DNA of 46,525 nucleotides. Source: Hausera hauseri (taxonomy: Eukaryota). The DNA is taken from contig JBJURY010333269.1 of NCBI GenBank assembly GCA_046269625.1, forward strand, positions 1 to 46,525. The letters are read 5' to 3'. Shown piece after piece: positions 6,318 through 46,525 of the stretch. Numbering within the stretch: position 1 is the first letter of the stretch; every line of letters starts with the position of its first letter. Under the pieces are notes generated by a model that worked only from the letters and a program-made list of their open reading frames with translations, did not search any database and was not told where the DNA came from. A program made the position numbers and the translations under genes.

Positions 6318-7151
6318 ATGGCTCAAAAGAAATTGCTTGATGATAAGCGTAGTCTTCATCATATTGTAGATGAAGCAGCTAACAATACGAGTGATAAGGA
6401 TTGTGCAAAATCAGATAATCGCTGCTTCTTCGGAATGCGTAAGGGTGTAGAGAAGGATGATATTTACGCTCCTCATTGGTGCTTCGCTCCATTCAATTAT
6501 GGGGGTCTAGATGCTTATAGCGATATTTACATCAATCTGGAGCGTTTCTATCGTATCTCCAAGAATAAAAAGGGCTATCGAGCCTGGGTGAACTACGTCA
6601 CTAAGCGTTCCCCTGTTAAAGATGTGTTTATCAAGAACACTAAGCGTAATGCTTATGATGGTGGTGTTTATGTGGATGTGAATTGCCACTACAAGAAGCT
6701 GCTTGCAGCGACCATTGCCCTACGTCAGTGTTCTGAATTCCCTGAATGTCTTGATGTGTTTATGCGTCTTCGTCGTCGTATGGATGAAGATGCAGCATTC
6801 TTTATTGCTTGTATTATTCAATCAATTGGTAAAGATCAATACAAGCTATGGGTTGATGGTGGACATTCTGTATATAGTGGAAACTATCGTCTAATTGATA
6901 CGCTTAAGGTGTTTAATGGTGTACGAGTAGATAATCCAGCATATGGATTTGAATTCTGGGGTGGACATAAGCTTAAGCGTAATTATGAAGAGGAGAAAGG
7001 CTCAGTAAATGAAGTGTTTGCTAGCTTGGTGAAACAAGTGGAAGTTGGTGAAGGGTGGAATAAGCGTAAGAAAACCACTTGGAAATCTCTTCAACCGTTT
7101 ATTCAGTACGTTAGTACGACTCTCAAACTGATTAAGGAGAATCATGCCTAA
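6318..7151 (+). CDS. Hypothetical protein heading the ligase cluster (277 aa)
   Basis: Long ORF, AAGGA RBS, overlaps the next gene. Confidence 0.85.
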   Translation: MAQKKLLDDKRSLHHIVDEAANNTSDKDCAKSDNRCFFGMRKGVEKDDIYAPHWCFAPFNYGGLDAYSDIYINLERFYRISKNKKGYRAWVNYVTKRSPVKDVFIKNTKRNAYDGGVYVDVNCHYKKLLAATIALRQCSEFPECLDVFMRLRRRMDEDAAFFIACIIQSIGKDQYKLWVDGGHSVYSGNYRLIDTLKVFNGVRVDNPAYGFEFWGGHKLKRNYEEEKGSVNEVFASLVKQVEVGEGWNKRKKTTWKSLQPFIQYVSTTLKLIKENHA

Positions 7152-7773
7152 AGTGTTTATCGTTGATGGTAATTATGAATATGCTGCAATGTTCCGTCGT
7201 AATGCATGGGAGATTGTGGATAGCGTAGAAGAAGCTGATCTAGTACAATTTACTGGCGGTGAGGATGTGTGGCCTGGAATGTATGGGGATAATGCACATC
7301 CTGCTTCTTCCTTCAATGTTCAACGAGATATGACAGAATTGGGTGTATTCAATCATGCACATTCTCTTGGGATTCCTGTTGCTGGCATTTGTCGTGGTGG
7401 CCAGTTTCTTAACGTCTGCTGTGGCGGTCGAATGTATCAGCACGTTGAATTGCATGCTACTGGAATGGGCCATCACATCCTTGATGTGAAGACAGGGGAA
7501 CACATCTACGTCAGTAGTACACACCATCAGATGATGCTACCTGGACCTAATGCTGAACTAGTGGCTACGTCTAGACTTGGTGGTAAGCGTGAATGGTTTA
7601 CTAACGAAGTGTATGAGACAGATTTCTCTGATGAGGATATTGAGGTGGTGTTCTATAAAGATATGAAAGCATTGTGTTTCCAGCCTCATCCTGAATTTAA
7701 TAAGCCGGAATATGAGCGTATGACGCAATATTATTTTGAGCTTATTCAATATTATTTTGGCCTTAAGGCGTAA
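7144..7773 (+). CDS. Class I glutamine amidotransferase-like / peptidase C26 (gamma-glutamyl hydrolase) family
   Basis: FTGGEDV, GICRGGQFLNV (catalytic Cys), STHHQ, QPHPE (His-Glu). Confidence 0.92.
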   Translation: MPKVFIVDGNYEYAAMFRRNAWEIVDSVEEADLVQFTGGEDVWPGMYGDNAHPASSFNVQRDMTELGVFNHAHSLGIPVAGICRGGQFLNVCCGGRMYQHVELHATGMGHHILDVKTGEHIYVSSTHHQMMLPGPNAELVATSRLGGKREWFTNEVYETDFSDEDIEVVFYKDMKALCFQPHPEFNKPEYERMTQYYFELIQYYFGLKA

Positions 7774-7780
7774 TTAATAA

Positions 7781-7864
7781 GAGCCTGTGGTGGAATAGGT
7801 AGACACAGCAGACTTAAAATCTGCCGCCATAAGCGTGAGGGTCCGAGTCCCTCCAGGCTCACCA
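7781..7864 (+). tRNA. tRNA-Leu(UAA)
   Basis: Acceptor GAGCCTG/CAGGCTC, anticodon arm GCAGA-CTTAAAA-TCTGC, long variable arm, encoded CCA. T-loop reads TCCGAGT instead of TTCGA. Confidence 0.93.
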
Positions 7865-7883
7865 ATATAAGGAGCTATCACGA

Positions 7884-8123
7884 ATGAAAGTGTATAAATG
7901 TATTAGATCATTCCCTCAGAATGATGATGGATTTATGCGACTTGGTTTTCATACATCATTATTGAAAGCTAAGCGCGCTGCTATTGCAGAGATGAATTTC
8001 AGGAAAGAACCAGAAGACAAGATGCTGAAGGTTGTTGATTGGAAGGAATACATTCCAGGAATGTGGTCTCATACTGATAAATATGATGTCCAATATTACA
8101 TTGAAGAAATCGAGGTGGAATAG
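7884..8123 (+). CDS. Hypothetical protein (79 aa)
   Basis: AAGGAG RBS; abuts the next gene. Confidence 0.8.
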   Translation: MKVYKCIRSFPQNDDGFMRLGFHTSLLKAKRAAIAEMNFRKEPEDKMLKVVDWKEYIPGMWSHTDKYDVQYYIEEIEVE

Positions 8124-8831
8124 ATGAAAATTGCAATTCTCAGTAGCGTAGCAGGGAAGAGCAGCAAGCGTCTCGCTAATGCTCTCAAGTTCAACAAGAT
8201 TGACGCTGTTGTGGTTAAGCCTAATGATGGCGACAATATTCCTGAAGATGCTACACACGTCTTCAGCTATGGTTGTTCTACACGTAGCCATAAGCTTCCT
8301 CGTCTGAATGCTGTTGAAGCTATTCGCACTTGTGTAGATAAACCTAAGACCTTTGATGCGTGTAAGCGTGCTGGTGTTAGTCATGTGGAATACACCCTGG
8401 ATAAACAGGATATTCCTCGTCATTGGGACTGGGTGGTTATCCGTGATAAGCAAGATGGTCGTAAGGCGGAAGGACTTGCTTATGCTGAAAACATTCCGAA
8501 TGAAATTCCTGATGGTGTGCTCTTCACTGAGTATTATGAACACCGATATGAATATCGCATTGTTGTGTTTCGTGGTAAGGTGGTAGGACGCTATTACAAG
8601 CGTGAAGATGCTGGTGACTGGTATTTCAACAATCAACCTGCTAAGGGCTTTGAATTGATGGATAAGCATTGCATCAAGGCTGCTAAGGAGATTGGTATTG
8701 ATTATGTAGGCTTTGATGTTGTAGCCAAGGACAAGAAGACGTTCAAGATTCTTGAGGCTAATAGCGCAGCACTTCTCACTGACGAAGGTGAGAATGCTAT
8801 TGTGGAATACTATCTTAATCTGGAGGGTTAA
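8124..8831 (+). CDS. ATP-grasp ligase (RimK/glutathione synthetase-like)
   Basis: CVDKPKTF, EYRIVVF, GIDYVGFDVV, ILEANSA. Confidence 0.88.
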   Translation: MKIAILSSVAGKSSKRLANALKFNKIDAVVVKPNDGDNIPEDATHVFSYGCSTRSHKLPRLNAVEAIRTCVDKPKTFDACKRAGVSHVEYTLDKQDIPRHWDWVVIRDKQDGRKAEGLAYAENIPNEIPDGVLFTEYYEHRYEYRIVVFRGKVVGRYYKREDAGDWYFNNQPAKGFELMDKHCIKAAKEIGIDYVGFDVVAKDKKTFKILEANSAALLTDEGENAIVEYYLNLEG

Positions 8832-8834
8832 TCT

Positions 8835-10178
8835 GTGTGCGGTATTGTTGGTGTGGCCGGTTTCATCGGTCTTAAACAAGACAAGATGATGGAAAAACTC
8901 CTGATTCTTGATTCTATGCGTGGTCTTCACTCTACCGGTATTGTTGCTGTCCCTAAGTTTGGTGATCCTACTATTGCTAAAGCTGTTGGCAATCCCTTCG
9001 AGCTGTTTAATACGGTTACGTATGACAAGGCTATGAAGAAGAGTAATTGTGTCATTATTGGACACAATCGCTATGCCACCCAAGGGCAAGTGAATCGTAA
9101 GAATGCCCATCCATTTAATGCTGGTGGCTTGTATGGTGTACATAATGGTACGCTGAAGAATAAGTATAAGCTTCTCGATCAGCAATTCTTCGATGTAGAT
9201 AGTGAGAATCTCTACCATCATATGTACCATAATGGTATTGATGATTTGCTTGCCACTATTGATGGTGCATGGGCACTGGTCTGGTGGGACAATGAAGAAA
9301 GTAGTCTAAATTTCCTTCGTAATAAGGAACGTCCTCTGTTCCTGGCTGAAGATTTGAAGACTGATACTCTCTACTGGGCCAGTGAGAAGTGGATGCTAGA
9401 AGTAGCTGCTGCATATTGTGATGTTGAATTCCGTCTGATTGAAAGTATGAAGGAAGATATGCATCTCAATATTGTAATTGACGAGAAGGGCCATATGGCT
9501 AAGCCTGTAGTCACTCATCGTCCTTCTACGTATGTCAATCCTCATGTTATCCAACATTCCACTGGCAATTGGAAGCAGGATATGGCTACAGCCTTTGGTA
9601 TGACTGCGGAGGAAGTGGAAAATTTTACGGCCAAGGAGGTAGCTGCCCCTTCTGATAAAGGTCAAACCAAGGCGGTGCTCACCCTTCGTAAGACAGCTAC
9701 TAAAGATGATCTATATGCTGTGGGAGAAGTACTTACGTTGGAATGTCTTGGGACCGGTAGGGACAGCTTTGGTGGCCGTTATCTGTCTTTCTTTGATAAG
9801 GCTAATGATGAGGCTGACATCCGCCTTTACATCAAGCAACGTAATGATGAGTTTGAAGACCTTGGTGGGCACATGGTTGAAGTGTGTATTAAGGAAGTAG
9901 CTAGTAGCTTTGGTAAGAAGCATTACAAGCTGGACGGTTGGAAGGTTAAGGATTTGGGTGAAGTGGAATCTATTACCATTCCTCCTGAAAAAGAAATCCT
10001 AGACTTTAAGGGCAAACCAATCACTGAGGAAAACTTTACTACCAAGTATGGTGTGTGTGCTCATTGTGATGGTTATGTCAATCCAAAGCTCGATTTCCGC
10101 TATACGACTGGAGGTGAAACTATTTGTCACGAATGTGTAACCACGATTTATGGTAATAACGTTGTTCAATTGCAATGA
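8835..10178 (+). CDS. Class II (Ntn) glutamine amidotransferase with extra C-terminal domain and Zn finger
   Basis: MCGIVG, RG, GHNRYAT, NAHPF, HNGT, VDSE; terminal CAHC..CHEC. Confidence 0.92.
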   Translation: MCGIVGVAGFIGLKQDKMMEKLLILDSMRGLHSTGIVAVPKFGDPTIAKAVGNPFELFNTVTYDKAMKKSNCVIIGHNRYATQGQVNRKNAHPFNAGGLYGVHNGTLKNKYKLLDQQFFDVDSENLYHHMYHNGIDDLLATIDGAWALVWWDNEESSLNFLRNKERPLFLAEDLKTDTLYWASEKWMLEVAAAYCDVEFRLIESMKEDMHLNIVIDEKGHMAKPVVTHRPSTYVNPHVIQHSTGNWKQDMATAFGMTAEEVENFTAKEVAAPSDKGQTKAVLTLRKTATKDDLYAVGEVLTLECLGTGRDSFGGRYLSFFDKANDEADIRLYIKQRNDEFEDLGGHMVEVCIKEVASSFGKKHYKLDGWKVKDLGEVESITIPPEKEILDFKGKPITEENFTTKYGVCAHCDGYVNPKLDFRYTTGGETICHECVTTIYGNNVVQLQ

Positions 10179-10621
10179 GAATTGGTGAACTAGATTATGA
10201 TGTAGATGCGTTAGGACGTATTCTTAAGAAGAAAGGGAAAGGTGAACGTAAAACTTTTCCGGATAAGGATGGTTATTTAAAGTATTCATTACAACAAAAC
10301 GGAAAGACATTGAACTTTTTTGTACATCGTTTTGTTTATCAGTATTTTAAAGGACCTATTCCCGATACCATGACGGTAGATCATATTGATGGAGATAAAT
10401 TAAATAATCAAATTGATAACTTACAATTACTTAATGCAAAAGAGAATGCAATCAAAGGTAACGCTAGAACTTGGATTGTGTTTCGACCCAACCACTCTTC
10501 ATTAGTTGTCTATAATATGGAAGAATTCTGTCGTAAGAATGATCTCCACCCTGGACACATGAGAGCTACAGCAAAACTCAATAGTAAACATAAAGGATGG
10601 TATTGTTATGAGCGCAATTAA
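10175..10621 (+). CDS. HNH homing endonuclease
   Basis: VHRFVY..VDHIDGDKLNNQIDNL; AT-rich. Confidence 0.9.
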   Translation: MRIGELDYDVDALGRILKKKGKGERKTFPDKDGYLKYSLQQNGKTLNFFVHRFVYQYFKGPIPDTMTVDHIDGDKLNNQIDNLQLLNAKENAIKGNARTWIVFRPNHSSLVVYNMEEFCRKNDLHPGHMRATAKLNSKHKGWYCYERN

Positions 10622-11408
10622 TTTCATGGTAGGGGCCGATCCCGAACTGTTCATCCGTCAAAATGGTGTATTTAAGAGTGCCTTCGGGTTGATTCCTGGC
10701 ACCAAACAACAACCACATAAGGTGAATAAGGGGGCAGTGCAGATTGATGGTATGGCGCTGGAATTCAATATTGATCCAGCTAAGAGCGAAGATGAATTTA
10801 GTGTGAATGTCCAAACGGTGATGGCATGCTTGCAAAGCATGGTCCCTGGATATGAGATGGTCGCATCTCCAGTCGCCCACTTCGATCTTGAATACTTCAA
10901 GCAGCAGCCTGATGCAGCTAAGGAACTTGGTTGCGATCCTGATTTCAATGCATGGGAAGATGGTAAGGAGAACAAGAAGCCGGATGGTGATCGTCCTTTC
11001 CGCACTGCCTCTGGTCATGTGCATATTGGATGGACCGCTGACAAGAATGTTAGTGATCCTAATCATCAATACCAGGGAAATTTGATTGTTAAGAACTGTG
11101 ATTTCTTCCTGGGCCTCATGTCTCTCATGTATGACGACGATACTGAGCGACGTAGCCTTTACGGCAAGGCTGGAGCATGCCGCTATAAGCCATATGGGGT
11201 TGAGTACCGCACCCTAAGCAATCGTTGGACGGATAGTGAACAACTTATGCGGTTGGTCTATCGCAATACTATCGCAGCAGCGCAGGCGACGGTCAGCGGT
11301 AATTTCCTGTGGGAGCGTCACGGAGACATCCAACACATCATCAACACATCGGATGTAGACGATGCTCGTCGCATCCTTGACATCGAAGGCATTGAATATT
11401 ATGGATGA
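10608..11408 (+). CDS. phiEco32-like COOH-NH2 ligase type 2
   Basis: GADPELF, IPGTK..P, DGMALEFNI, GCDPDFNAW, RTASGHVHIG, YGKAGACRYKPYGVEYRTLSN. Confidence 0.9.
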   Translation: MSAINFMVGADPELFIRQNGVFKSAFGLIPGTKQQPHKVNKGAVQIDGMALEFNIDPAKSEDEFSVNVQTVMACLQSMVPGYEMVASPVAHFDLEYFKQQPDAAKELGCDPDFNAWEDGKENKKPDGDRPFRTASGHVHIGWTADKNVSDPNHQYQGNLIVKNCDFFLGLMSLMYDDDTERRSLYGKAGACRYKPYGVEYRTLSNRWTDSEQLMRLVYRNTIAAAQATVSGNFLWERHGDIQHIINTSDVDDARRILDIEGIEYYG

Positions 11409-12039
11409 GTTGTCGATTAATGATGCCCAACAGCAATATAGTGATTCTTTGGTGATGGTGTCTAATCGTCCTGCTCACATCCAACGTGTGTGGCAGGATG
11501 GGAAGAAGATCAAGATGATGATTGTCTTCCTCGAAGATTTCTCCATGGCCGTTGCTGAATGGGGCAAGTATGCCATCTCTGCACCAGACAAACGTCTAGG
11601 CATGGTTAACCACGTAGACACTGCTGTATGGATGACTCGTCGTCCTGTACGACGCTATAAGGTGGGCTTTGCTAAGGAAAACATCAAGGCTAACATCGTG
11701 CAAGGATTCATGGGTGACGAGAATGCACGTAATGCTGTGGTGTATTTCAATAGTCCAGGGCTACACAACGCTATCATGAATATTTATCCAGATATTCAAG
11801 CAGCCTACGATTGGGCTAGGGAATGCCAAGGTTGTTGGGCATTCGATAAACAATTTGCTATTGACCATCAGGGTCAGGTCTATTACAAAGACCAGCATAT
11901 TGTCGGGTATCTCACAGAGAAGAAAAAGAATAAGGTTGAGAACATTAAGTGGTCTATTGGTAATGAACATCTTTCTATTCTCCTAGGAGGTAATTGTGAG
12001 AACACTTTCCGCGCTCTTGAACAGTCCGAAGAAGCTTAA
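11401..12039 (+). CDS. Hypothetical protein within the ligase cluster
   Basis: ATG 11401 overlaps the previous stop; phage-typical codon usage. Confidence 0.8.
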   Translation: MDELSINDAQQQYSDSLVMVSNRPAHIQRVWQDGKKIKMMIVFLEDFSMAVAEWGKYAISAPDKRLGMVNHVDTAVWMTRRPVRRYKVGFAKENIKANIVQGFMGDENARNAVVYFNSPGLHNAIMNIYPDIQAAYDWARECQGCWAFDKQFAIDHQGQVYYKDQHIVGYLTEKKKNKVENIKWSIGNEHLSILLGGNCENTFRALEQSEEA

Positions 12040-13270
12040 AGATGGTGATGTAGGTATTGAGATTGAGATGGAGGGTAAGCAACTGTATGCTGCCCGTACA
12101 TTTGAAGCTGTTAGCCATCTGTGGAATATTGAGGACGATGGAAGCCTTCGTGGACGATATCCGGATTCCAAGTGTGAATACGTGCTGAAGAATCCTCTGT
12201 CTGTAGAGGCTTCTAAAGAAGCTTTGGCTAAGATGGAAGAAATGTTGGCTGGTAACGAGGCTGTTGTCAACGACAGTCCTCGTACAAGCGTTCATATCCA
12301 CATGAACGTTCAACGTATGACACATTCTCAGTATTGCAATCTGGTATACACCTATCTTCTTCTAGAGAATGCTCTGGCTACGAAGTGGGGAGAACGTCGT
12401 ATCGCCAATCGCTTCTGCCTTCGTCTTCGTGATGCTGAAGATGCGATTGACCATCTGAAGAAGGTGTTCAATAATGATTATTGGCTATTGGAATTGAGTG
12501 AAGAGAATATTCGATATGCTGCCATCAACCTAGCTTGCTTCAAGAAGTATGGCTCTATTGAATTCCGTGGAATGCGTGGTACTACTGACAAGGCTGTGAT
12601 TGGTGAATGGATTGACATTCTGTTCCAGCTTAAGGACTATGCCTGCTCTGTTAAGGATGTTCATGAGGTTCGTAATGATCTAATGACTATCGGGGCTAGC
12701 AAATGGGCCAAGAAGGCCCTTGGAAACTTCTACAACAGCTTTAATAAGGATGTTGTATACCAGAGTGTGGTCGAAGCCTATTCGCTCTCTATGGACCTTC
12801 CTATGGCCTATGTCTGTCAACGTTATCAATATGAAGATTATGTGGAACAGCCTAAGGTAGAAGTGAAAGCAGCTAAGAAGGAGGTGGTTGATAAGGCACC
12901 TATTTGGCCTAATGCTGATCAGTGGGATGCTGATCAAAGGGCAGAATGGATTGACAAAGAAGCTTCTATTATCTGGCATGATTCAGATGAGTATAATGAA
13001 GATGGGGATGTGCCTGTTTGGTGTTATGACATGGCTATTAATCATCTGGATAAATATGCTAAGGAAGCGGCTGAATATCGTGCTAGGCAAGCTAATGCTC
13101 CTGTGAATTTTATTCGTGAAGCTGCTCCTATTCGTTGGCAGGACTTCGTAGCAGAGCAACCTATTATTGCCCCTGGTGCAGAAGCTATTGAACAAGCTGT
13201 TCAACAAATGGAGCAATTCTTGGCAGATAGACAACATCCTCAAGAATGGGAAGAAGATGACATGTTCTGA
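11996..13270 (+). CDS. Putative amidoligase (glutamine synthetase-fold) with acidic C-terminal extension
   Basis: VGIEIEMEG, DGSLR, EYV, TSVHIHMNV, RYAAIN, GSIEFR; GGAGG RBS. Confidence 0.88.
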   Translation: MRTLSALLNSPKKLKDGDVGIEIEMEGKQLYAARTFEAVSHLWNIEDDGSLRGRYPDSKCEYVLKNPLSVEASKEALAKMEEMLAGNEAVVNDSPRTSVHIHMNVQRMTHSQYCNLVYTYLLLENALATKWGERRIANRFCLRLRDAEDAIDHLKKVFNNDYWLLELSEENIRYAAINLACFKKYGSIEFRGMRGTTDKAVIGEWIDILFQLKDYACSVKDVHEVRNDLMTIGASKWAKKALGNFYNSFNKDVVYQSVVEAYSLSMDLPMAYVCQRYQYEDYVEQPKVEVKAAKKEVVDKAPIWPNADQWDADQRAEWIDKEASIIWHDSDEYNEDGDVPVWCYDMAINHLDKYAKEAAEYRARQANAPVNFIREAAPIRWQDFVAEQPIIAPGAEAIEQAVQQMEQFLADRQHPQEWEEDDMF

Positions 13271-24507: not shown

Positions 24508-25877
24508 ATGGAACAAAGCATTCGTAGTAAACTAATTTATCAGCGTACTTACTCTCGGCCTCTCAATGATGAGGCTACAGTATTTGAAACATATGAACAA
24601 ACCATTGATCGAGTTATTGGACACCAACAATGGCTCTGGGAGCGAGCACAAGGACGAAGCCTCGACTGGGCTCAAGCAGCAGAGCTCGATGAACTGCGCC
24701 AGCTCATGGTCGAACGAAAGCTTCTTATGTCAGGCCGAACTCTCTGGCTCGGAGGTACTGAAGTTGCTAAGCGACGGGAAGCGAGTCAATTTAACTGTAG
24801 CTTCACAAACGTGGAATCAGTATATGACGTTGTTGACGTCCTTTGGCTACTCATGCAGGGTTGTGGAGTTGGGTTCCGACCTATTGTGGGTCAGCTTACA
24901 GGCTTCCAAAAGCCCATCAAAGAACTAGAGATTGTACGTAGTGAACGAACCGAAAAGGGAGGAGACCAAGAGAACAAAGAATTCTTTGAAGATGGTGTCT
25001 GGACAATCCAAGTTGGAGACAGTGCAGAAGCCTGGAGCAAGAGCATCGGTAAGCTGGTCGCTCATAAGTTTCCCGCCAGTAAACTTGTACTCGATTTCTC
25101 GCAGATTCGTCCAGCAGGAGAAAGGCTGAAGGGATATGGTTGGATTAGTAGCGGAGACGCAGCAATTGCTAAGGCTTACACTGCAATCTTTAACATCCTT
25201 AATAAGCGTGCTGGTAGCCTTCTTACTCGTATCGATATTCTCGATGTTGTTAACTGGCTGGGTACTATCCTTAGCTCTAGGCGCTCTGCTGAAATCGCTC
25301 TGTTTGAATATGGGGAAGATGAGTGGCAAGAATTTGTCGTAGCTAAGAATAATTGGTGGGAGAATAATGTTCAGCGTGCTCAAAGCAATAATTCCCTCCT
25401 CTTCAAACATAAGCCTACAATTGGAGAGCTTAAACACATCTTCGATCTTATGGTTGCTAGCGGTGGTAGTGAGCCCGGATTTATTAATGCTGAAGCTGCT
25501 ACTCGACGAGCACCGTGGTTTAAAGGTGCCAACCCTTGTGTGGAAATTCTCCTAGGTAATAAGAGTTTCTGCAATCTTTCGGAGGTGGACATTGGAAAGT
25601 TCTATGGTGATTCTTACGGCCTCCGCAGGGCTATTGAGCTGGCAGCGAGAGCTAATTACCGGCAAACATGCGTTAACCTTCTTGACGGTATTCTTCAAGA
25701 AGCATGGCATCTCAACAATGAGTTCCTCCGACTCTGTGGTGTTGGACTTACAGGAATCGTCACTAGGCCCGATCTTAAGTCTTACGACTACAGCGAGCTT
25801 CAGCGAGTTGCTACTTCAGGAGCTTACGGAATGGCTGACGAACTCCGGCTTCAACGTCCAAAGAACGTCACCTGCGT
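24508..25877 (+). CDS. nrdJ: Class II (B12-dependent) ribonucleotide reductase, exon 1
   Basis: RTYSR, GRTLW, FNC, GCGVGF, RRSAEI, NPCVEI, CNL; ends in KNVTCV. Confidence 0.9.
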
Positions 25878-26671
25878 CAATTGGCGCCTTGCTTAAGTAA
25901 TTAAGCAATGAAAACTGCGTGAATTGCTGGAAAGCTAAGGAGAAATCTAAGCCAATCAGCAGCCAAGCCTGATGCGTTTTGTAGATAAACCTATAGGAAC
26001 AAGATATAAGCATTAGGAAGGTTCAGAGACTATCCCGTGGTGGGAGTAGGTGTCAAGTGGCATCGAAGCGCGCAGCAACCTACTAGGTTGATGATATAGT
26101 CCGATCTTCTTGGAAACAGGAAGAAGTATGAAATTATATGAGATAAGAAATTCAGAGAATGATGTAGTATATGTAGGTGTTACAAGGTCTACATTAGCAG
26201 CTCGTTTTCGCGGTCACAAGTTCTATGCTAAAACAAAGACAACACCATTGTATAATGCAATGCGTAAATATGGATTTGAAAACTTCTATATACAACTTGT
26301 GTCAGAATTTGAAACAGAAGAAGAAATGCTTGCAGCAGAGATAGAGAAGATCAAATTCTATCGTGATTCAGGTGTTAAATGTTATAACGTGTCTAACGGT
26401 GGTGAAGCACATTTCGAGGTGGTTGATAAGCCAGCTTGGATTGAGAAACTAAAAAATGCACGTAAGGGTAGAAAACCGGCTCAAGGAATGAGCCATACAG
26501 ACGAGAATAAGAAGTTATTCTCTGAATATGGTAAAGCTCGCTGGGATAAATACGGACGATACCCTGATGATATTATTCTTCTGAAATTTACTGAAGCCAA
26601 AGAGAAATATGGTATTAGTAAAACTCATTATTACAGACTGGTTAAGGCTAACGACCTTAATTGAACTTTTG
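25878..26671 (+). mobile_element. Group I self-splicing intron (IA2-like), 794 nt
   Basis: P1 gcgU/caatt/Ggcgc with a U.G splice pair; P2 TTGCTTAA-GTAA-TTAAGCAA; P3 CTGCGT/GCGCAG. P AATTGCTGGAAA, Q AATCAGCAGC, R GTTCAGAGACTA, S GATATAGTCC; P7.1/P7.2 hairpins; terminal G 26671. Splicing restores TCVKPSGT in frame. Confidence 0.95.
26128..26664 (+). CDS. Intron-encoded GIY-YIG homing endonuclease with NUMOD3-like motif
   Basis: LYEI..VYVGVT..RF..H, E, YN; GMSHTDENKK. Confidence 0.9.
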   Translation: MKLYEIRNSENDVVYVGVTRSTLAARFRGHKFYAKTKTTPLYNAMRKYGFENFYIQLVSEFETEEEMLAAEIEKIKFYRDSGVKCYNVSNGGEAHFEVVDKPAWIEKLKNARKGRKPAQGMSHTDENKKLFSEYGKARWDKYGRYPDDIILLKFTEAKEKYGISKTHYYRLVKANDLN

Positions 26672-27257
26672 CAAACCCAGCGGAACCCTCAGTAAAGTCA
26701 TGGACACGACTGAGGGCGTACACAAGCCCCTGGGACGATACATCTTCAATAACGTTAACTTCGGAAAGCATGACCCGCTTGTTTCTCTCTGCCGAGAAGC
26801 TGGATATAAAGTAGTTCCTAATCCTTCTGATCCAGAAGCTGTGTTGATTACTTTCCCTGTCAAGTGGGACACTGTGAAGTTTGACACTGTTGATGGTGTG
26901 GATGTTAATATCGAATCTGCTATTAGCCAGCTTGAACGCTATAAGATGTTGATGGAGAATTGGTGTCAACAGAATGTCAGTATGACTGTTAGTTATTCAG
27001 TGGAGGAAGTAGATGGGATTGTGGAATGGCTACATGCTAATTGGGATTATTATGTTGGAGTATCTTTCCTGTTTCGGACTGACCCAACCAAGACAGCAGA
27101 AGACCTTGGATACAAGTACCTTCCACAAGCAGTCGTAACCAAGAAAGAATACGAAGAATATGTAGAGGGTTTACTCCCAGTTAATCTAAATACAGAATTT
27201 GATATGGATGAAGAATTGGAACCAGATTGTTCCACCGGCGCGTGTCCCATCAGGTAG
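26672..27257 (+). CDS. nrdJ: Class II ribonucleotide reductase, exon 2
   Basis: KPSGTLSK..EGVH; C-terminal redox pair CSTGACPIR. Spliced product is 651 aa. Confidence 0.9.
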
Positions 27258-41194: not shown

Positions 41195-41677
41195 TTAAAC
41201 CTTAGTCTTGAATTCGTACTCAGCGATGAGACGAATCTTACCAGCACCGGCTGTCACAGCGGGGGTAGTACCGCCGAGCTGGAACTTAACCTTTTCAGCA
41301 GCAGTAGTGCCAGTAGCAGAAGTCGTAGACCACGTACCTGTACCGGTAGAAGCAGGAATCTTAGTACCAACAGCACCAACTTCGGCTTGTGTCAGCACAA
41401 CACCGTTAGTAGCAGGAGCAGTACCACCGATAAGCACCGTAGGTGTCGTACCAGTGAGAACCAGAGCTTCATCAACGCGAAGGATGAATCGCAGGAAGTG
41501 AGCACCTCGCGGCAGCACAAAGTTGGGAACAAAGCCGTCAGTAAAATTCTGCCAGACCAGCTCCACACCCATTTGATGCGTCGAATCCATCGAACGCTCA
41601 ACACCAACCGAACCACCCACAGTACGCACACCGTACTGATTCAGGACGTTAAGACCTGTATTACTTTCGTAGGGCAT
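41195..41677 (-). CDS. Capsid decoration / minor capsid protein
   Basis: Directly after the MCP, with the same high-expression codon bias and an AGGAG RBS. Confidence 0.7.
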   Translation of the reverse strand: MPYESNTGLNVLNQYGVRTVGGSVGVERSMDSTHQMGVELVWQNFTDGFVPNFVLPRGAHFLRFILRVDEALVLTGTTPTVLIGGTAPATNGVVLTQAEVGAVGTKIPASTGTGTWSTTSATGTTAAEKVKFQLGGTTPAVTAGAGKIRLIAEYEFKTKV

Positions 41678-41690
41678 CTATATCTCCTAA

Positions 41691-42644
41691 TTAGAACTTG
41701 GTGGCAGAGGTAATCAGAATACCCAGCGAGTCAACGCGCTGAGCACCCATGCCCCAACGGCAAGACGTAACGAATTCGTCACGACGCAGGTCCTTATTGC
41801 GCTCACCTTCCACCTTAGGCATACGACGCCATGCAGCCATAATCGGCTTGATGTTGTCATCAGCAACGTTCATGAACACGTTAGCCACAGCACCAGTCAC
41901 AGCCGTAGTACCATCGGTGAAGTCACCCTTGGCAAGACGGTTAGAAGTGATGATGTTCCAGCCATACAGATTCATCAGGAACGTATGATCGCGATCAAAA
42001 CCATTCAACAGAATCTTCTCACCGAACGGGGTGACATCGCGGCCGATGCTCACCAGACGGTCCAGAGTAGAAGCGCAAACCGGGTCGATAATAGCGACGC
42101 GGCCACCCATAGGAACGTTAGCCTTGTCAAAGGCCAGCTTCATGCGAATGAAGTGATCCAGAGTGATTGTGTTTTCAGAACCCACTGTAGCCACAGTAGA
42201 CGAGATACGATGCGGAAAACCGTTGATCGTATTAGCCGTAGCTTGGTTCTGAGCAGTGTTACAACGAGCGAGGAAGCGAGATTCAAACGTCTCTTGAATA
42301 GCACGAGTCGATTCCGAAGAACGACCAGCCATCAGAGCCTCAACCTGAGCACCGTCTTCACGCAGTTCATCAGTGACGTACCAAGCATCGCCAACATAGT
42401 CGGTGATGGTCAGAGTCACTTCACCCGAATCAATCGGGGTATAATCGAACGGGACATCTTCAGCACCGTCTTGAATAGTGACAGTACCGATAGTCTTGAT
42501 GTGAAGCGTAGTACCGCTACCGAAATCACTGACGTTACGATAGAACGTCTCCGGAAGCATACCATCGTGCAGATTGCGAAGAATGAACGCGCTATACTGC
42601 TCGGCTTCAATAAATGCTGTGCTATTTGCACGATTTTGACTCAT
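41691..42644 (-). CDS. Major capsid protein
   Basis: 317 aa; AFIEAEQYSAFILRNLHDGMLP..RNVSDFGSGTTLHIKTIG resembles LUZ24/PaP3-type MCP; follows the scaffold. Confidence 0.92.
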   Translation of the reverse strand: MSQNRANSTAFIEAEQYSAFILRNLHDGMLPETFYRNVSDFGSGTTLHIKTIGTVTIQDGAEDVPFDYTPIDSGEVTLTITDYVGDAWYVTDELREDGAQVEALMAGRSSESTRAIQETFESRFLARCNTAQNQATANTINGFPHRISSTVATVGSENTITLDHFIRMKLAFDKANVPMGGRVAIIDPVCASTLDRLVSIGRDVTPFGEKILLNGFDRDHTFLMNLYGWNIITSNRLAKGDFTDGTTAVTGAVANVFMNVADDNIKPIMAAWRRMPKVEGERNKDLRRDEFVTSCRWGMGAQRVDSLGILITSATKF

Positions 42645-43093
42645 AAGTCAATTTCCTTAAATTTATTGGTGAGAATTCCTTTAGCCACCCTTTGTACTGT
42701 AGAGCGCCCAAACCCAGTTTGGCGACCGATTTCACGAAGAGATAGATGAGGATGTGAGTTAATAAACGAACTTAATTGGTTAAAATCTGATTCAGTCAAC
42801 GTACTATATCGTCCCGCCGGTCGTCCTTTACTCTTACGATCCTCTACATTATCTGTATTAGTCCCTAAGAATAAGTGGTCAGGATTCACACAAGCTGGTG
42901 TATCACATTTATGTAACACATGCAACTCGCCGGGATCAATGTTGTGGTATAAAATATACGAAACACGAGAGGCTGTCGTTGCTTTACCATTATACGAGAA
43001 TACACCGTATCCACTAGAACGACGTGCGGCATTCCAAAGCCAGCAGCCTGACTCGTGCTTTGAAAACTTCTCTTCAAAGCGATTTTGAGCCAT
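42641..43093 (-). CDS. HNH homing endonuclease
   Basis: GCWLW..GYG..VLHKCDTPACVNPDHLFLGTNTDN..KGR plus HTH. Confidence 0.92.
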   Translation of the reverse strand: MAQNRFEEKFSKHESGCWLWNAARRSSGYGVFSYNGKATTASRVSYILYHNIDPGELHVLHKCDTPACVNPDHLFLGTNTDNVEDRKSKGRPAGRYSTLTESDFNQLSSFINSHPHLSLREIGRQTGFGRSTVQRVAKGILTNKFKEIDL

Positions 43094-43109
43094 ATTTTAT
43101 CCTATTTAA

Positions 43110-43919
43110 TTAACCAAAGAATTTACTATATACCTTAGGATCAGTAAGATCGTTGATGCTCATACCCTTCGCTTCAAGTTCTGCGATCATATCTTGACCG
43201 TTCTTCATCTCTTGTTGCATATCTTTCCGGGTAGCGCCCATCAAAGCACTGGTCTGATTCCGCCGAATATTAGTATCTTGCGGAGGCCGAAGAGCATCAG
43301 TATTAATCGTTGAATTAGGAGGCGTAAACACAGAAGCCTTAGGCGTGACATTAAAATATGTCAATACAGCCTTAGGACTCTTAGCAGCCAACACATTCAA
43401 TTCAGCAACACTAATACCTAATTCAGCAGCTTTGTCATTATATTTCTTCTCAGCTTCAGCGCCAAATGCATCCTTAAGAGCATTAGCTACAGCTTCAGTA
43501 TTTTGTTTAACTGTCTGTTGCTGTTCACGTTGATTAATATTCTGACTGACTAGATCAGCAATTTGTTCAGGAGTGAGGGAGCTACCGGTTTGTGGAGCGG
43601 GCTTGTTTACTTCCTGAGTGAGAGACTGAAGAGTACGTTCAAGTTCTGCAATTCGATCTGCTTCGGTCTTGGACCTTGCTAAATCAGCTTCTAATTGAGA
43701 CTTTGAATTCGTCAGATTTGCAATATGATCTTGCGAGTGACGAAGCGCAATCAAAGCAGAATTAATATCCTTGTACTTTTGCTCTCCACGTTCATTCTTA
43801 ATTTCGCTTAGAAGGGTAATCAAAGCTGGATCAGGTTGAACGGTTGATCCCTGCTGGGGATCGGGATTTGGCTGGGTAGCCGGATTTTGATTTCCGAAAA
43901 TCGAGGACTGGTCGGTCAT
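43110..43919 (-). CDS. Capsid scaffolding protein
   Basis: True start MTDQ at 43919 (AAGGA RBS); coiled coil; lies between portal and MCP. Confidence 0.8.
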   Translation of the reverse strand: MTDQSSIFGNQNPATQPNPDPQQGSTVQPDPALITLLSEIKNERGEQKYKDINSALIALRHSQDHIANLTNSKSQLEADLARSKTEADRIAELERTLQSLTQEVNKPAPQTGSSLTPEQIADLVSQNINQREQQQTVKQNTEAVANALKDAFGAEAEKKYNDKAAELGISVAELNVLAAKSPKAVLTYFNVTPKASVFTPPNSTINTDALRPPQDTNIRRNQTSALMGATRKDMQQEMKNGQDMIAELEAKGMSINDLTDPKVYSKFFG

Positions 43920-43944
43920 TCGATATATTCCTTTAAGATTATTC

Positions 43945-44020
43945 TGGTGCCTCATGTTAGACTCGAACTAACAACCTACTGCTTACAAGACAGTTGCTCT
44001 TCCAATTGAGCTAACAAGGC
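43945..44020 (-). tRNA. tRNA-Thr(UGU)
   Basis: GCCTTGTTAGCTCAATTGGAAGAGCA-ACTGT-CTTGTAA-GCAGT..GTTCGAGT..GAGGCACCA, 76 nt. Confidence 0.93.
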
Positions 44021-44060
44021 TTATTTAATACTTCTATATATCTATATTAATATATAAAAT

Positions 44061-44300
44061 CTACATAAGAAGAGAAATAATTTCATCCATAGCCTTCTCA
44101 TATCCTAAAATAGAGGCAGCTTGCAGATGCCACGAAGCTTTTTCAAAGGCTTCATCACCTTTAAGGAGCTTTCGTTTAGTCTCAATCTTATCTTTAATAT
44201 GTTCAATGAGCTGTTTACGGAACAAAGCAGAAGCTTTGAAATTTAATTCTAGCTCCTTGCTTTGATCATCATTTAGCCCCTTTTTAAGAGAAGTTTTCAT
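44061..44300 (-). CDS. Hypothetical protein after the portal (79 aa)
   Basis: ATGA coupling to the portal. Confidence 0.75.
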   Translation of the reverse strand: MKTSLKKGLNDDQSKELELNFKASALFRKQLIEHIKDKIETKRKLLKGDEAFEKASWHLQAASILGYEKAMDEIISLLM

Positions 44301-46057
44301 TTAGGAAAATCCGCTGGATCAATTGATTGTTCGGACATCAAATCCTCAGTAGCTTGGCTAGAGAGGCGAGCCGTCTCTTGTTGCTCAAACACAGCAGCGT
44401 TAGGAGCAAACAGAGTATATCGGCGGAGATTCAGAACATCCTCAATAAGCTTAGCAAGCTGCTTACCAGAAGTATGTGGAGCAATCATTTGAGGTAGATT
44501 AGGACCAAAGACACCAGACAGATTCTGCATAAGCTGAGCTTGAGCAGCGAAGTGACGAGCGCCAATAGGACGAATCACACCAGCAGCAGTGATGTCTTCA
44601 CGAGTAATTGTGCGGAAAGATGTAACGCCAAGATCATCATCAATTACACGAACAACGTCCTCATTATCGAGATTACGACGTGCTGTTTCAAGCATAGCAT
44701 TTAACAGACGTTCAAGCAATTCAGTTTCAAATGTAGTGATCTTCTCTTGGAAAATACGACCACCAGCATTTTGTAATTGTTGCACCTCAAATGCTGTCTT
44801 TTCACCAGGACTCCGAATACCCATAGCCTCACGCGGAGCACCAGCAAACATTTCCATTCGCTGCTCTAAAAGACTAATAGCATTATCGGCTTGAATCACC
44901 CATTGGACATTACGTGCCAATTCAGTAACTGTACCACCTTCATCAATATGAATCTCAGCACCAGGGCTGTATTGGAATTCCTCCACATCACCGGCAATAA
45001 CTAGCGGAGGAAGAACAGCCAAGTCCATAGCATCGGCCTTAAGGTTTTCCAAATGGTCGATACGATATTGCATTCCAACAAGATTATCGAGAGGACCCAT
45101 ACCCCAAAGGTTATCAGGCCGTTTACGCCAAGTAGTAGCGTAAATAGGGGCGCTACCAAACCAAGAAGGAATAGGCTCATTACGAATAACCCACATCCGG
45201 TCAACAATAGTAATAATACGACCTGTTTGATATTTCTTATTAACATCGTCATAAATATCACCATAGAATGTCAGGAATTCACAATATCCAGACTGCAGAT
45301 ATTCTTGATAATTACCAAAGCCATCCATCTGAAAACCATCATCTTTTTCGAGGTCTTCAAGGCCATAAGCACCCATGTGCGTATACAAAGCTTGACGCTG
45401 TTCTAACACCTTCTTCAAATAGGCATTATCCGGGTCAGTCTCTGCCATGCTGTACAATTCTCCGATGTTTTTGACAGCCCGGATAATTTTAAAACTATCT
45501 TTAAAGGAAGCAGCTACCGGATTAAAGACAATATCGAGAGGGCTAATACGTCGAACTCGGGGGCCAATGTAGTCGGGAATCTTATTACCGTATACATCAT
45601 CTCGATAAGAGGCTTCATAATCCACTGTACCAATCGCAATACCATAGTCAATATAGTCATATAGTAGTTGGCTTAGTTCAGACCTAAAATATCCCTCTCG
45701 ACACTTATTAGAAATGTATGCTTCAATTGCGGATACCTTATCCTTAGCAGCATCATTCTTAGAATAAGCTTCCCACTTCACCCATTCATCATTAGGAAAA
45801 AGAGCAGAGATATAATTGGAATGTAGGTTGTCACGAATCTGACAAAGTTTTGGGAGCGTTGTCGTGTTCTTCCATGGAAGACCTCGGTTACTTGTAGTAG
45901 AGGTGTCAGTTGCAAACAAATAGTTTCTTAACTCACGCCACTCTGCAATTTTACCAGTCATTTGTGACCGATAATTGAACCAAGTATTAGAAATAGTTTT
46001 AGCAAGATCATCTCCAGCGAATGCACTTCGGAGGACGAGCGGGGTCTTTCCTGCCAT
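44297..46057 (-). CDS. Portal protein
   Basis: 586 aa; WKNTTTLPKLCQIRDNLHSNY, GMQYRIDHLEN, GIRSPGEKTAFEVQQL; synteny. Confidence 0.9.
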   Translation of the reverse strand: MAGKTPLVLRSAFAGDDLAKTISNTWFNYRSQMTGKIAEWRELRNYLFATDTSTTSNRGLPWKNTTTLPKLCQIRDNLHSNYISALFPNDEWVKWEAYSKNDAAKDKVSAIEAYISNKCREGYFRSELSQLLYDYIDYGIAIGTVDYEASYRDDVYGNKIPDYIGPRVRRISPLDIVFNPVAASFKDSFKIIRAVKNIGELYSMAETDPDNAYLKKVLEQRQALYTHMGAYGLEDLEKDDGFQMDGFGNYQEYLQSGYCEFLTFYGDIYDDVNKKYQTGRIITIVDRMWVIRNEPIPSWFGSAPIYATTWRKRPDNLWGMGPLDNLVGMQYRIDHLENLKADAMDLAVLPPLVIAGDVEEFQYSPGAEIHIDEGGTVTELARNVQWVIQADNAISLLEQRMEMFAGAPREAMGIRSPGEKTAFEVQQLQNAGGRIFQEKITTFETELLERLLNAMLETARRNLDNEDVVRVIDDDLGVTSFRTITREDITAAGVIRPIGARHFAAQAQLMQNLSGVFGPNLPQMIAPHTSGKQLAKLIEDVLNLRRYTLFAPNAAVFEQQETARLSSQATEDLMSEQSIDPADFPK

Positions 46058-46525
46058 TATTTATCCTTATTAAATAACATAGTTTGTTGACACAGCTTCA
46101 GAAAAGCATCCAATCCAAAATTTAGAATTGCTGCATTAACATGCCATGTAACTAATCGGATATTACCTTTAACATAACCAAGCTCTGGGATAATCTTATC
46201 CAGAGACGGTGCATCTTTATTCTGATATGTTTCAGATGCTGACAAATCAAAAGGTCTACCAGAAATGAGACAACAAGCATTCTGATTGTTCCACATCTTT
46301 AAGACATATTCTTTATCTAAATCAAATGGTAAGTTATATTTTACAGAACGAGCTTTAGCACCTTTAATCAGTTGAGTAACTCGAAAATCAACAGACTCTT
46401 TCAATCTATGATGCCGCTCTTTCTGATATGATACTCCCTTTTCGCGCAAACGATCCTTATTAGCGGCATACCATTCTCTAGCTCGTTCTTTAACTTTCTC
46501 TTTATTCTGTTCGTAGTATTGGTTA
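46057..46525 (-). CDS. HNH-like homing endonuclease; 5' end outside window
   Basis: Frame is open to the window edge (..YYEQNKEKVKERAREWYAANK..); CLISG..PSLDKIIPELGYVKGNIRLVTWHVN. Confidence 0.8.
   Translation of the reverse strand, partial: NQYYEQNKEKVKERAREWYAANKDRLREKGVSYQKERHHRLKESVDFRVTQLIKGAKARSVKYNLPFDLDKEYVLKMWNNQNACCLISGRPFDLSASETYQNKDAPSLDKIIPELGYVKGNIRLVTWHVNAAILNFGLDAFLKLCQQTMLFNKDK

Follow-up and report, generated by a model that had tools for sequence, protein, structure and literature searches.

The T4-type free-standing endonucleases MobE, MobC and SegD (beside capsid gene 23) are encoded by intron-less genes that overlap the start or stop codons of their neighbours and are patchily distributed, as described in PMC2988022 and PMC2790892. 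The account of free-standing endonuclease genes of T4 in PMC2988022 describes them as intergenic and the initiation region of most as poor or absent. Both MobA in T4-like topoisomerase genes and MobE of Aeh1 in nrdA are described as HNH genes inserted without splicing into an essential open reading frame (ORF), where the MobA cassette supplies a new N-terminus together with a homologous copy of host sequence (homR), and where repeated independent insertions, exchange for other nucleases and progressive loss are reported (10.1101/2022.08.31.505936). In those cases the host protein is split in two, and terminal extensions and ribosomal bypass are needed (10.1101/2022.08.31.505936). Among fungal mitochondrial mobile ORFs (Allomyces atp6; Glomus atp6, atp9, cox2 and nad3), an organellar endonuclease element of the LAGLIDADG or GIY-YIG type duplicates the end of the host gene, that is its C-terminus, and the gene is restored without splicing (PMC3630166).

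The arrangement described here, in which an HNH gene appears to have captured the start of a phage major capsid protein (MCP) gene, is a variant of these ways in which homing endonucleases insert without splicing (T4 MobA, mitochondrial mobile ORFs). Like the free-standing HNH genes of T4, the nuclease gene is intron-less, adjoins a conserved essential gene with a stop/start overlap, and is patchy in occurrence; unlike them, the element seems to lie inside the first codons of its neighbour, whose native ribosome-binding site (RBS) and ATG it takes. With MobA it shares the lack of splicing, the intragenic position (seen in the pairs of relatives L210/L382 and L200/L015, see below) and a replacement copy of host coding sequence, but with a break so near the start the MCP is not divided, and the nuclease has the displaced piece as its N-terminus. 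It mirrors the mitochondrial mobile ORFs at the 5' end of the host gene, and it differs from them in belonging to a phage, in having HNH enzymes and in duplicating only a few codons. Fungal rps3 is an N-terminal case of mobile-ORF duplication. A full-text literature search, in which older T4/T7 work is thinly covered, returned no case of start capture for a phage capsid gene or for Zobellviridae, and the excerpts of PMC5626475, PMC7344957 and PMC10448857 contain none.

The window (the whole stretch of 46,525 nt that was analysed) comes from a Zobellviridae-like phage. Its MCP is 70% identical to the annotated MCP of Salinivibrio phage CW02 and 66% to that of Klebsiella phage Klyazma, both Zobellviridae, and the scaffold and MCP genes are adjacent in both of these phages. 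On the minus strand of the window the order is portal, small ORF, tRNA-Thr, scaffold, HNH and MCP (Table 1). The start of the scaffold gene is likely the one given there, because a longer frame from 43955 overlaps the tRNA-Thr gene. The window MCP is full-length, can be aligned to its relatives from residue 1, and is not split.

Table 1. Features of the scaffold/HNH/MCP region, in window coordinates.
Feature	Position	Strand	Remarks
Capsid scaffold protein gene	43110..43919	-	33% identical to annotated scaffold of Salinivibrio phage CW02, E 2e-37
Shine-Dalgarno-like AGGA	43100..43103	-	3' of scaffold stop (43110-43112); here serves HNH
Capsid start, upstream copy (first 14 nt of HNH, MAQNR)	43080..43093	-	12/14 nt identical to own MCP start
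Free-standing HNH (His-Me finger) endonuclease gene, C-terminal helix-turn-helix, 150 aa (predicted)	42641..43093	-	Pfam/PHROG
Replacement RBS AAGGA for MCP	42654..42658	-	within HNH frame, last codons (K-E)
Capsid start, downstream copy (MSQNR)	42631..42644	-	ATG overlaps HNH stop (ATGA, 42641-42644)
MCP gene, 317 aa, Zobellviridae-type	41691..42644	-	phrog_267, E 9e-48

A scan for promoters and terminators gave matches at chance level, searches with the MCP and HNH profiles matched no PDB sequence, and one sequencing run covering the stretch, probably its source, contained no variant and no HNH-less joint in its reads; no RNA run was listed as containing the stretch. As to tRNA genes, tRNA-Thr(TGT) (43945-44020, minus strand) lies just 5' of the scaffold gene, and tRNA-Leu(TAA) (7781-7864, plus strand) lies in the early region.

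The original prediction had the HNH gene and the MCP gene opening alike, with the MCP RBS embedded in the 3' end of the HNH gene, and all of this is confirmed from the sequence: HNH opens ATG GCT CAA AAT CG (MAQNRF; ATG at 43093) and MCP opens ATG AGT CAA AAT CG (MSQNR). The 9-mer TCAAAATCG is common to both starts and has no third copy on either strand of the window. When the 57 ATG starts of window ORFs of at least 100 aa were compared with one another, the 12/14 match was reached by 1 of the 1596 pairs, and 11/14 by 7 pairs; as a caveat, part of the match (Arg5) is also a conserved residue of the HNH family itself. The resemblance extends to relatives in which the scaffold gene is directly followed by the MCP gene (empty junctions): the first 15 nt of HNH match 62 of 121 such MCP starts at 12-14 positions. 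The AGGA at 43100-43103 lies where empty relatives have their capsid RBS, and the 16 nt that separate the scaffold gene from the HNH start fall inside the range of empty junctions. As for the 8 other endonuclease genes of the window, several of them with only roughly placed starts, no in-register shared word pointed to start capture, the longest words being 6-9 nt.

We predict from its sequence that the gene between the two starts is a free-standing HNH homing endonuclease cassette. It combines a nuclease domain with a DNA-binding module, lies outside any intron or intein, and is found patchily beside a conserved gene. The protein matches Pfam HNH_3 at E 4e-5 (23.6 bits, just under the curated cut-off of 24.8) and PHROG HNH families down to E 2e-27, with weak helix-turn-helix matches; its putative catalytic and zinc residues (H61, N70, H73, N82 and three Cys) are invariant across 33 aligned homologues. 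The best fold matches of its structure model (pLDDT 87) are weak ones to I-HmuI and I-PpoI (E ~0.008, ~20% identity), which are intron-encoded, whereas here the ORF occupies the entire interval between the two starts, out of frame with MCP and with its own stop. The GC3 of HNH is 0.34, versus 0.51 for MCP. Among the 16 closest HNH homologues, 15 have a K[EDG] dipeptide within their last 7 residues, just as the window HNH has its RBS-coding K-E, and several close homologues are on contigs of 36-52 kb; both observations fit, without proving, an insertion of these homologues at the same site. A group I intron carrying the HNH ORF was also considered and excluded by the lack of non-coding room in the insert and of any Rfam match to an intron, the tRNA being the sole match over 41500-44100 at E<=0.1. 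Group I introns are preceded by U and end in G; against this splice rule, no placement of the 523-nt insert of L210 (see below) ends in G.

The empty state is the norm among relatives. From 292 loci retrieved via the capsid gene we obtained 143 distinct scaffold/MCP junctions, 138 of them empty (137 called by script and one, L032, by eye) and 5 with an HNH gene or a remnant of one; inspection by eye confirmed L387 and L464 as empty. In an earlier tally of 127 empty junctions, which left out L065 and L455 since their MCP start lies beyond the contig edge, 71 MCPs open M[SA]QNR and the majority of the remainder MQ[LVI]T, so that the window MCP carries a normal start for its family. The HNH-less relatives thus look as had been expected of them, with a scaffold gene directly followed by an MCP opening M[SA]QNR.

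Three divergent HNH lineages occupy this one site, each opening with the capsid start of its host clade (MAQNR, M[AS]Q, MQLT), and the filled sites are scattered over 4 places of the QNR-type capsid tree (FastTree, local supports). In L022 and L040, the HNH proteins are 43% and 35% identical to that of the window, both open MAQ, and both MCPs restart at TTG. Only the tail of such an HNH is visible in L010, at a contig edge, before an MCP starting with GTG. L200 has a 34-codon HNH remnant opening MSQK and an MCP that starts with TTG, P0175 being a full-length parent of the remnant. L210 belongs to the MQLT capsid clade; its HNH is of the NUMOD4 type, opens MQLTP and has no BLAST match to the window protein at E<=10, and the sole plausible MCP start behind it is ATC. 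In the L200 remnant, the HNH gene has lost by deletion the part between two of its short direct repeats (at its start and in its C-terminal part), and both starts are kept.

Other searches, for the loci of close homologues of the window HNH and for filled sites, gave nothing further. A viral scan with the window HNH protein returned 69 distant loci, none beside an MCP, and a metagenome scan with the HNH alignment found no MCP among the 80 loci of the matches listed. A family-specific pattern for the window HNH matched no viral contig, and an HNH-plus-MCP pattern gave 27 matches, 25 without MCP and 2 already known. A pattern for non-ATG starts gave 15 matches and no new filled site; since this search selects for non-ATG starts, its loci were kept out of the tallies. 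Against named phages, tblastn with the L210 and L040 HNHs gave distant matches only (best 15 of 68 and of 224, respectively). We also considered MCPs opening QNRF as scars of repeated HNH loss and rejected the idea, 2 changes on the tree being sufficient; the non-ATG empty sites need 4 changes on the tree, and their origin as scars of loss is not borne out.

The breakpoints are visible in two near-isogenic pairs of filled and empty relatives, which show directly the original start on the nuclease and an element-supplied RBS and MCP start. L210 (filled) and L382 (empty) have no mismatch over 783 nt of left flank and one over 1390 nt of right flank. The 523-nt insert of L210 follows the same RBS and first 8 coding nt as in L382, which here head the HNH gene, and behind the insert the MCP starts again with these 8 nt repeated, except that ATC stands in place of ATG. 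In the second pair, L200 and its empty sister L015 differ at one position over 1377 nt, through the original RBS and the first 11 coding nt, and this original start now heads the HNH remnant. On the capsid side they differ at 7 of 218 nt, 5 of these differences being in the first 21 nt; these 21 nt (MCP codons 1-7 of L200) agree with the carrier L010 from codon 2 on. Judging from their sequences, either pair could reflect gain or precise loss of the cassette.

No close empty relative of the window phage was found, and with its best MCP relative at 84% amino acid identity, it is the start repeat that suggests an insertion inside the MCP ORF in the window as well. The original prediction placed this insertion about 5 codons into the MCP gene, with the original start and RBS kept and a rebuilt MCP 5' end. 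The architecture is upheld by the two near-isogenic pairs, but codon 5 is not: the insertion point can be fixed to within codons 1-6 and no finer, because the RF at positions 5-6 is native to HNH. That the arrangement would make precise loss difficult is contradicted, since an intact MCP start is formed again if the two starts recombine, as seen when the sequence between them is deleted in silico from the window; the repeat allows precise loss and does not hinder it.

The N-termini of the HNH homologues are of several kinds. Of the 30 closest to the window HNH (53-73% identity), 13 open M[AS]QNR, 4 open M[AS]Q and continue otherwise, and 13 have MALERF- or MVLDRF-like starts. More distant homologues never open x[AS]Q (0/90), and many have L[DE]RF-like motifs, which indicates that RF is native to HNH and QN capsid-like. 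The expectation that HNH homologues lack QNR holds for the 69 distant homologue loci, none with an N-terminal QNR, and is weakened by the closest homologues, with 13 of 30. As 17 of these 30, known as proteins alone, open M[AS]Q, the capture seen in the window may be inherited and not fresh. On an HNH tree built without the first six residues, the start changes between capsid-like and native 7-8 times, at least 3 of these changes being forced by well-supported branches; capsid-like starts are also clustered on this tree (2 of 500 label shuffles are as low). In the L022/L040 family (35-43% identical to the window protein), 7 of 8 members open M[AS]Q, and MQLTP is the usual N-terminus in the NUMOD4-type family of L210, where 14 of 20 close homologues open MQLT.

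The capsid start behind the element also differs from that of empty junctions. It is non-ATG (TTG, GTG or ATC) in 5/5 filled relatives, versus 7/138 empty junctions, in which the other 131 starts are ATG and these 7 are GTG or TTG. With the window included, 5/6 filled and 5/127 empty sites have a non-ATG start (Fisher p 5e-6, the rows not being independent); counted by lineage, the proportion is 2/3 (p 0.007). The window MCP, unlike the 5 filled relatives, retains ATG. At all 5 filled sites where both are visible, the anti-SD pairing of the element-supplied Shine-Dalgarno (SD) sequence is stronger than that of the captured SD. The original prediction would put the nuclease under a strong late initiation site; the captured window start has an open fold but a weak-to-average SD, below the median, and we saw no hairpin over the HNH start (opening 2.9 kcal/mol, versus a 5-95% range of 2.2-8.1 among 129 empty starts). 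Around the window MCP start, a perfect 6-bp stem (42646-42651 with 42636-42641, minus strand) encloses a 4-nt loop that contains the capsid ATG and the HNH stop; its opening of 6.1 is inside the empty-site range, and although we claim no function for it, such a stem could tie capsid translation to ribosomes finishing HNH. In L210 (1317-1325), the MCP has no in-frame ATG, GTG or TTG and an apparent ATC start behind a strong SD, in a single contig where an error is possible.

On the whole, we regard HNH as probably a free-standing homing-endonuclease cassette that inserts at the MCP translation start and goes through a cycle of gain and loss. It would extend from a point among the first few capsid codons as far as their second copy. 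Where the site is filled, HNH would be read from the RBS and ATG that the host had used for MCP, with the first capsid codons at its front. The 3' end of the cassette would provide MCP with a new RBS, a copy of the first capsid codons and a start codon, which in the window is an ATG coupled to the HNH stop and in relatives TTG, GTG or ATC, so that a full-length capsid protein is made without splicing or a split protein. By analogy with known free-standing homing endonucleases, as described in PMC2988022 and PMC2790892, the nuclease would, in a mixed infection, nick or cut an empty allele in or close to the 5' end of the capsid gene, and recombinational repair would copy the cassette into it. 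The left crossover may fall inside the shared start, which would yield capsid-like (M[AS]QNRF), hybrid (M[AS]QERF) or native (M[AV]L[DE]RF) HNH N-termini; since scaffold genes diverge fast (36-48% amino acid identity), the shared start offers a short left homology, and this would explain the hybrid N-termini. The same repeat would permit precise excision and thereby close the gain-loss cycle.

That L210 and L382 have near-identical flanks, and that the downstream start codons are changed, hints at, but does not prove, a target extending across the start itself. A stronger version, which we regard as possible rather than probable, is that the homing site is the capsid initiation region and that the nuclease recognises RBS, ATG and first codons, its own genome being protected by the split site, the changed start and the stronger SD. 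This target would be one that the host cannot easily change, and the downstream copy would have been altered to TTG, GTG or ATC, or, in the window, have kept ATG with a recoded Ser codon. Another account is that each lineage captured the start once, in the distant past, and has since homed as an ordinary intergenic element, with a distant cut in MCP or scaffold, crossovers in the flanking genes and the repeat as a fossil. The clustering of capsid-like starts on the HNH tree agrees with it, as do the MQLT start common to 14 of 20 proteins of the L210 family and the finding reported in PMC2790892 that MobE nicks nrdB at nt 122-126, away from its own insertion site. We think it improbable nonetheless: on supported branches the start changes state no fewer than 3 times, with position 2 toggling between S and A as in capsid genes; the upstream start of L200 is that of its empty sister while the downstream copy differs at codons 1-2; and L210 and L382, differing at 1 of 2173 flanking nt, leave little room for a distant immunity polymorphism.

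Two further explanations seem to us very unlikely, and about equally so. One would reduce the match to coincidence and selection for good initiation, AT-rich Ala/Ser-Gln starts being common and the RF motif of HNH adding the rest; MAQ indeed opens 2 other window genes, and the 7 start pairs reaching 11/14 and the native RF speak for it as well. Yet x[AS]Q is absent from the 90 distant homologues, the match varies with the host clade (being MQLT in the MQLT clade), and the near-isogenic pairs display the breakpoints, L210/L382 largely refuting coincidence for the class. The other would make HNH a domesticated head-morphogenesis gene, comparable to terminase-associated HNH proteins and placed under capsid-level translation for a need of the phage, in keeping with its place in the head operon, intact frame and conserved catalytic residues; a gene of this sort would hardly be absent at 138 of 143 junctions, swapped for an unrelated HNH in L210, decayed to a remnant in L200, and one of 10 such endonuclease genes in the window.

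Through a cassette of the kind we favour, a selfish nuclease would be able to reside within a phage gene that is both essential and highly expressed, by taking its start and supplying a new one. Thanks to a near-isogenic pair and three independent nuclease lineages, one can directly test where the target and the crossovers lie and what a non-AUG capsid start costs. If the initiation region is indeed the target, start capture would be a general third route into essential genes, beside introns and inteins, reached independently by three HNH lineages at the price of making the most abundant protein from a non-AUG codon. For annotation, many free-standing endonucleases recorded as intergenic may be intragenic, and capsid starts behind them can be missed.

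The window carries an unusually heavy load of homing-endonuclease-like genes for 46.5 kb, with ten (HNH, endonuclease VII-like and GIY-YIG) between 10175 and 46525. One of them (46057-46525, minus strand; phrog_3322), whose 5' end is beyond the window, directly precedes the portal gene, with the portal RBS in its tail and a stop/start overlap. A ribonucleotide reductase gene (24508-27257, plus strand) is in two pieces around a GIY-YIG ORF (26128-26664) with ~230 nt of non-coding DNA before it; the interruption is probably a group I intron. Another capsid gene, in L078 (2116-2998), is broken after codon 16 by an insert of ~880 nt in which Rfam found nothing at E<=0.1 and whose ORF we take to be LAGLIDADG-like; its removal restores the frame, with U before it and G at its end, so that it is probably a group I intron as well. 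Elsewhere in the window (7144-13270, plus strand), glutamine amidotransferase, ATP-grasp-like, COOH.NH2 ligase and amidoligase genes form a cluster.
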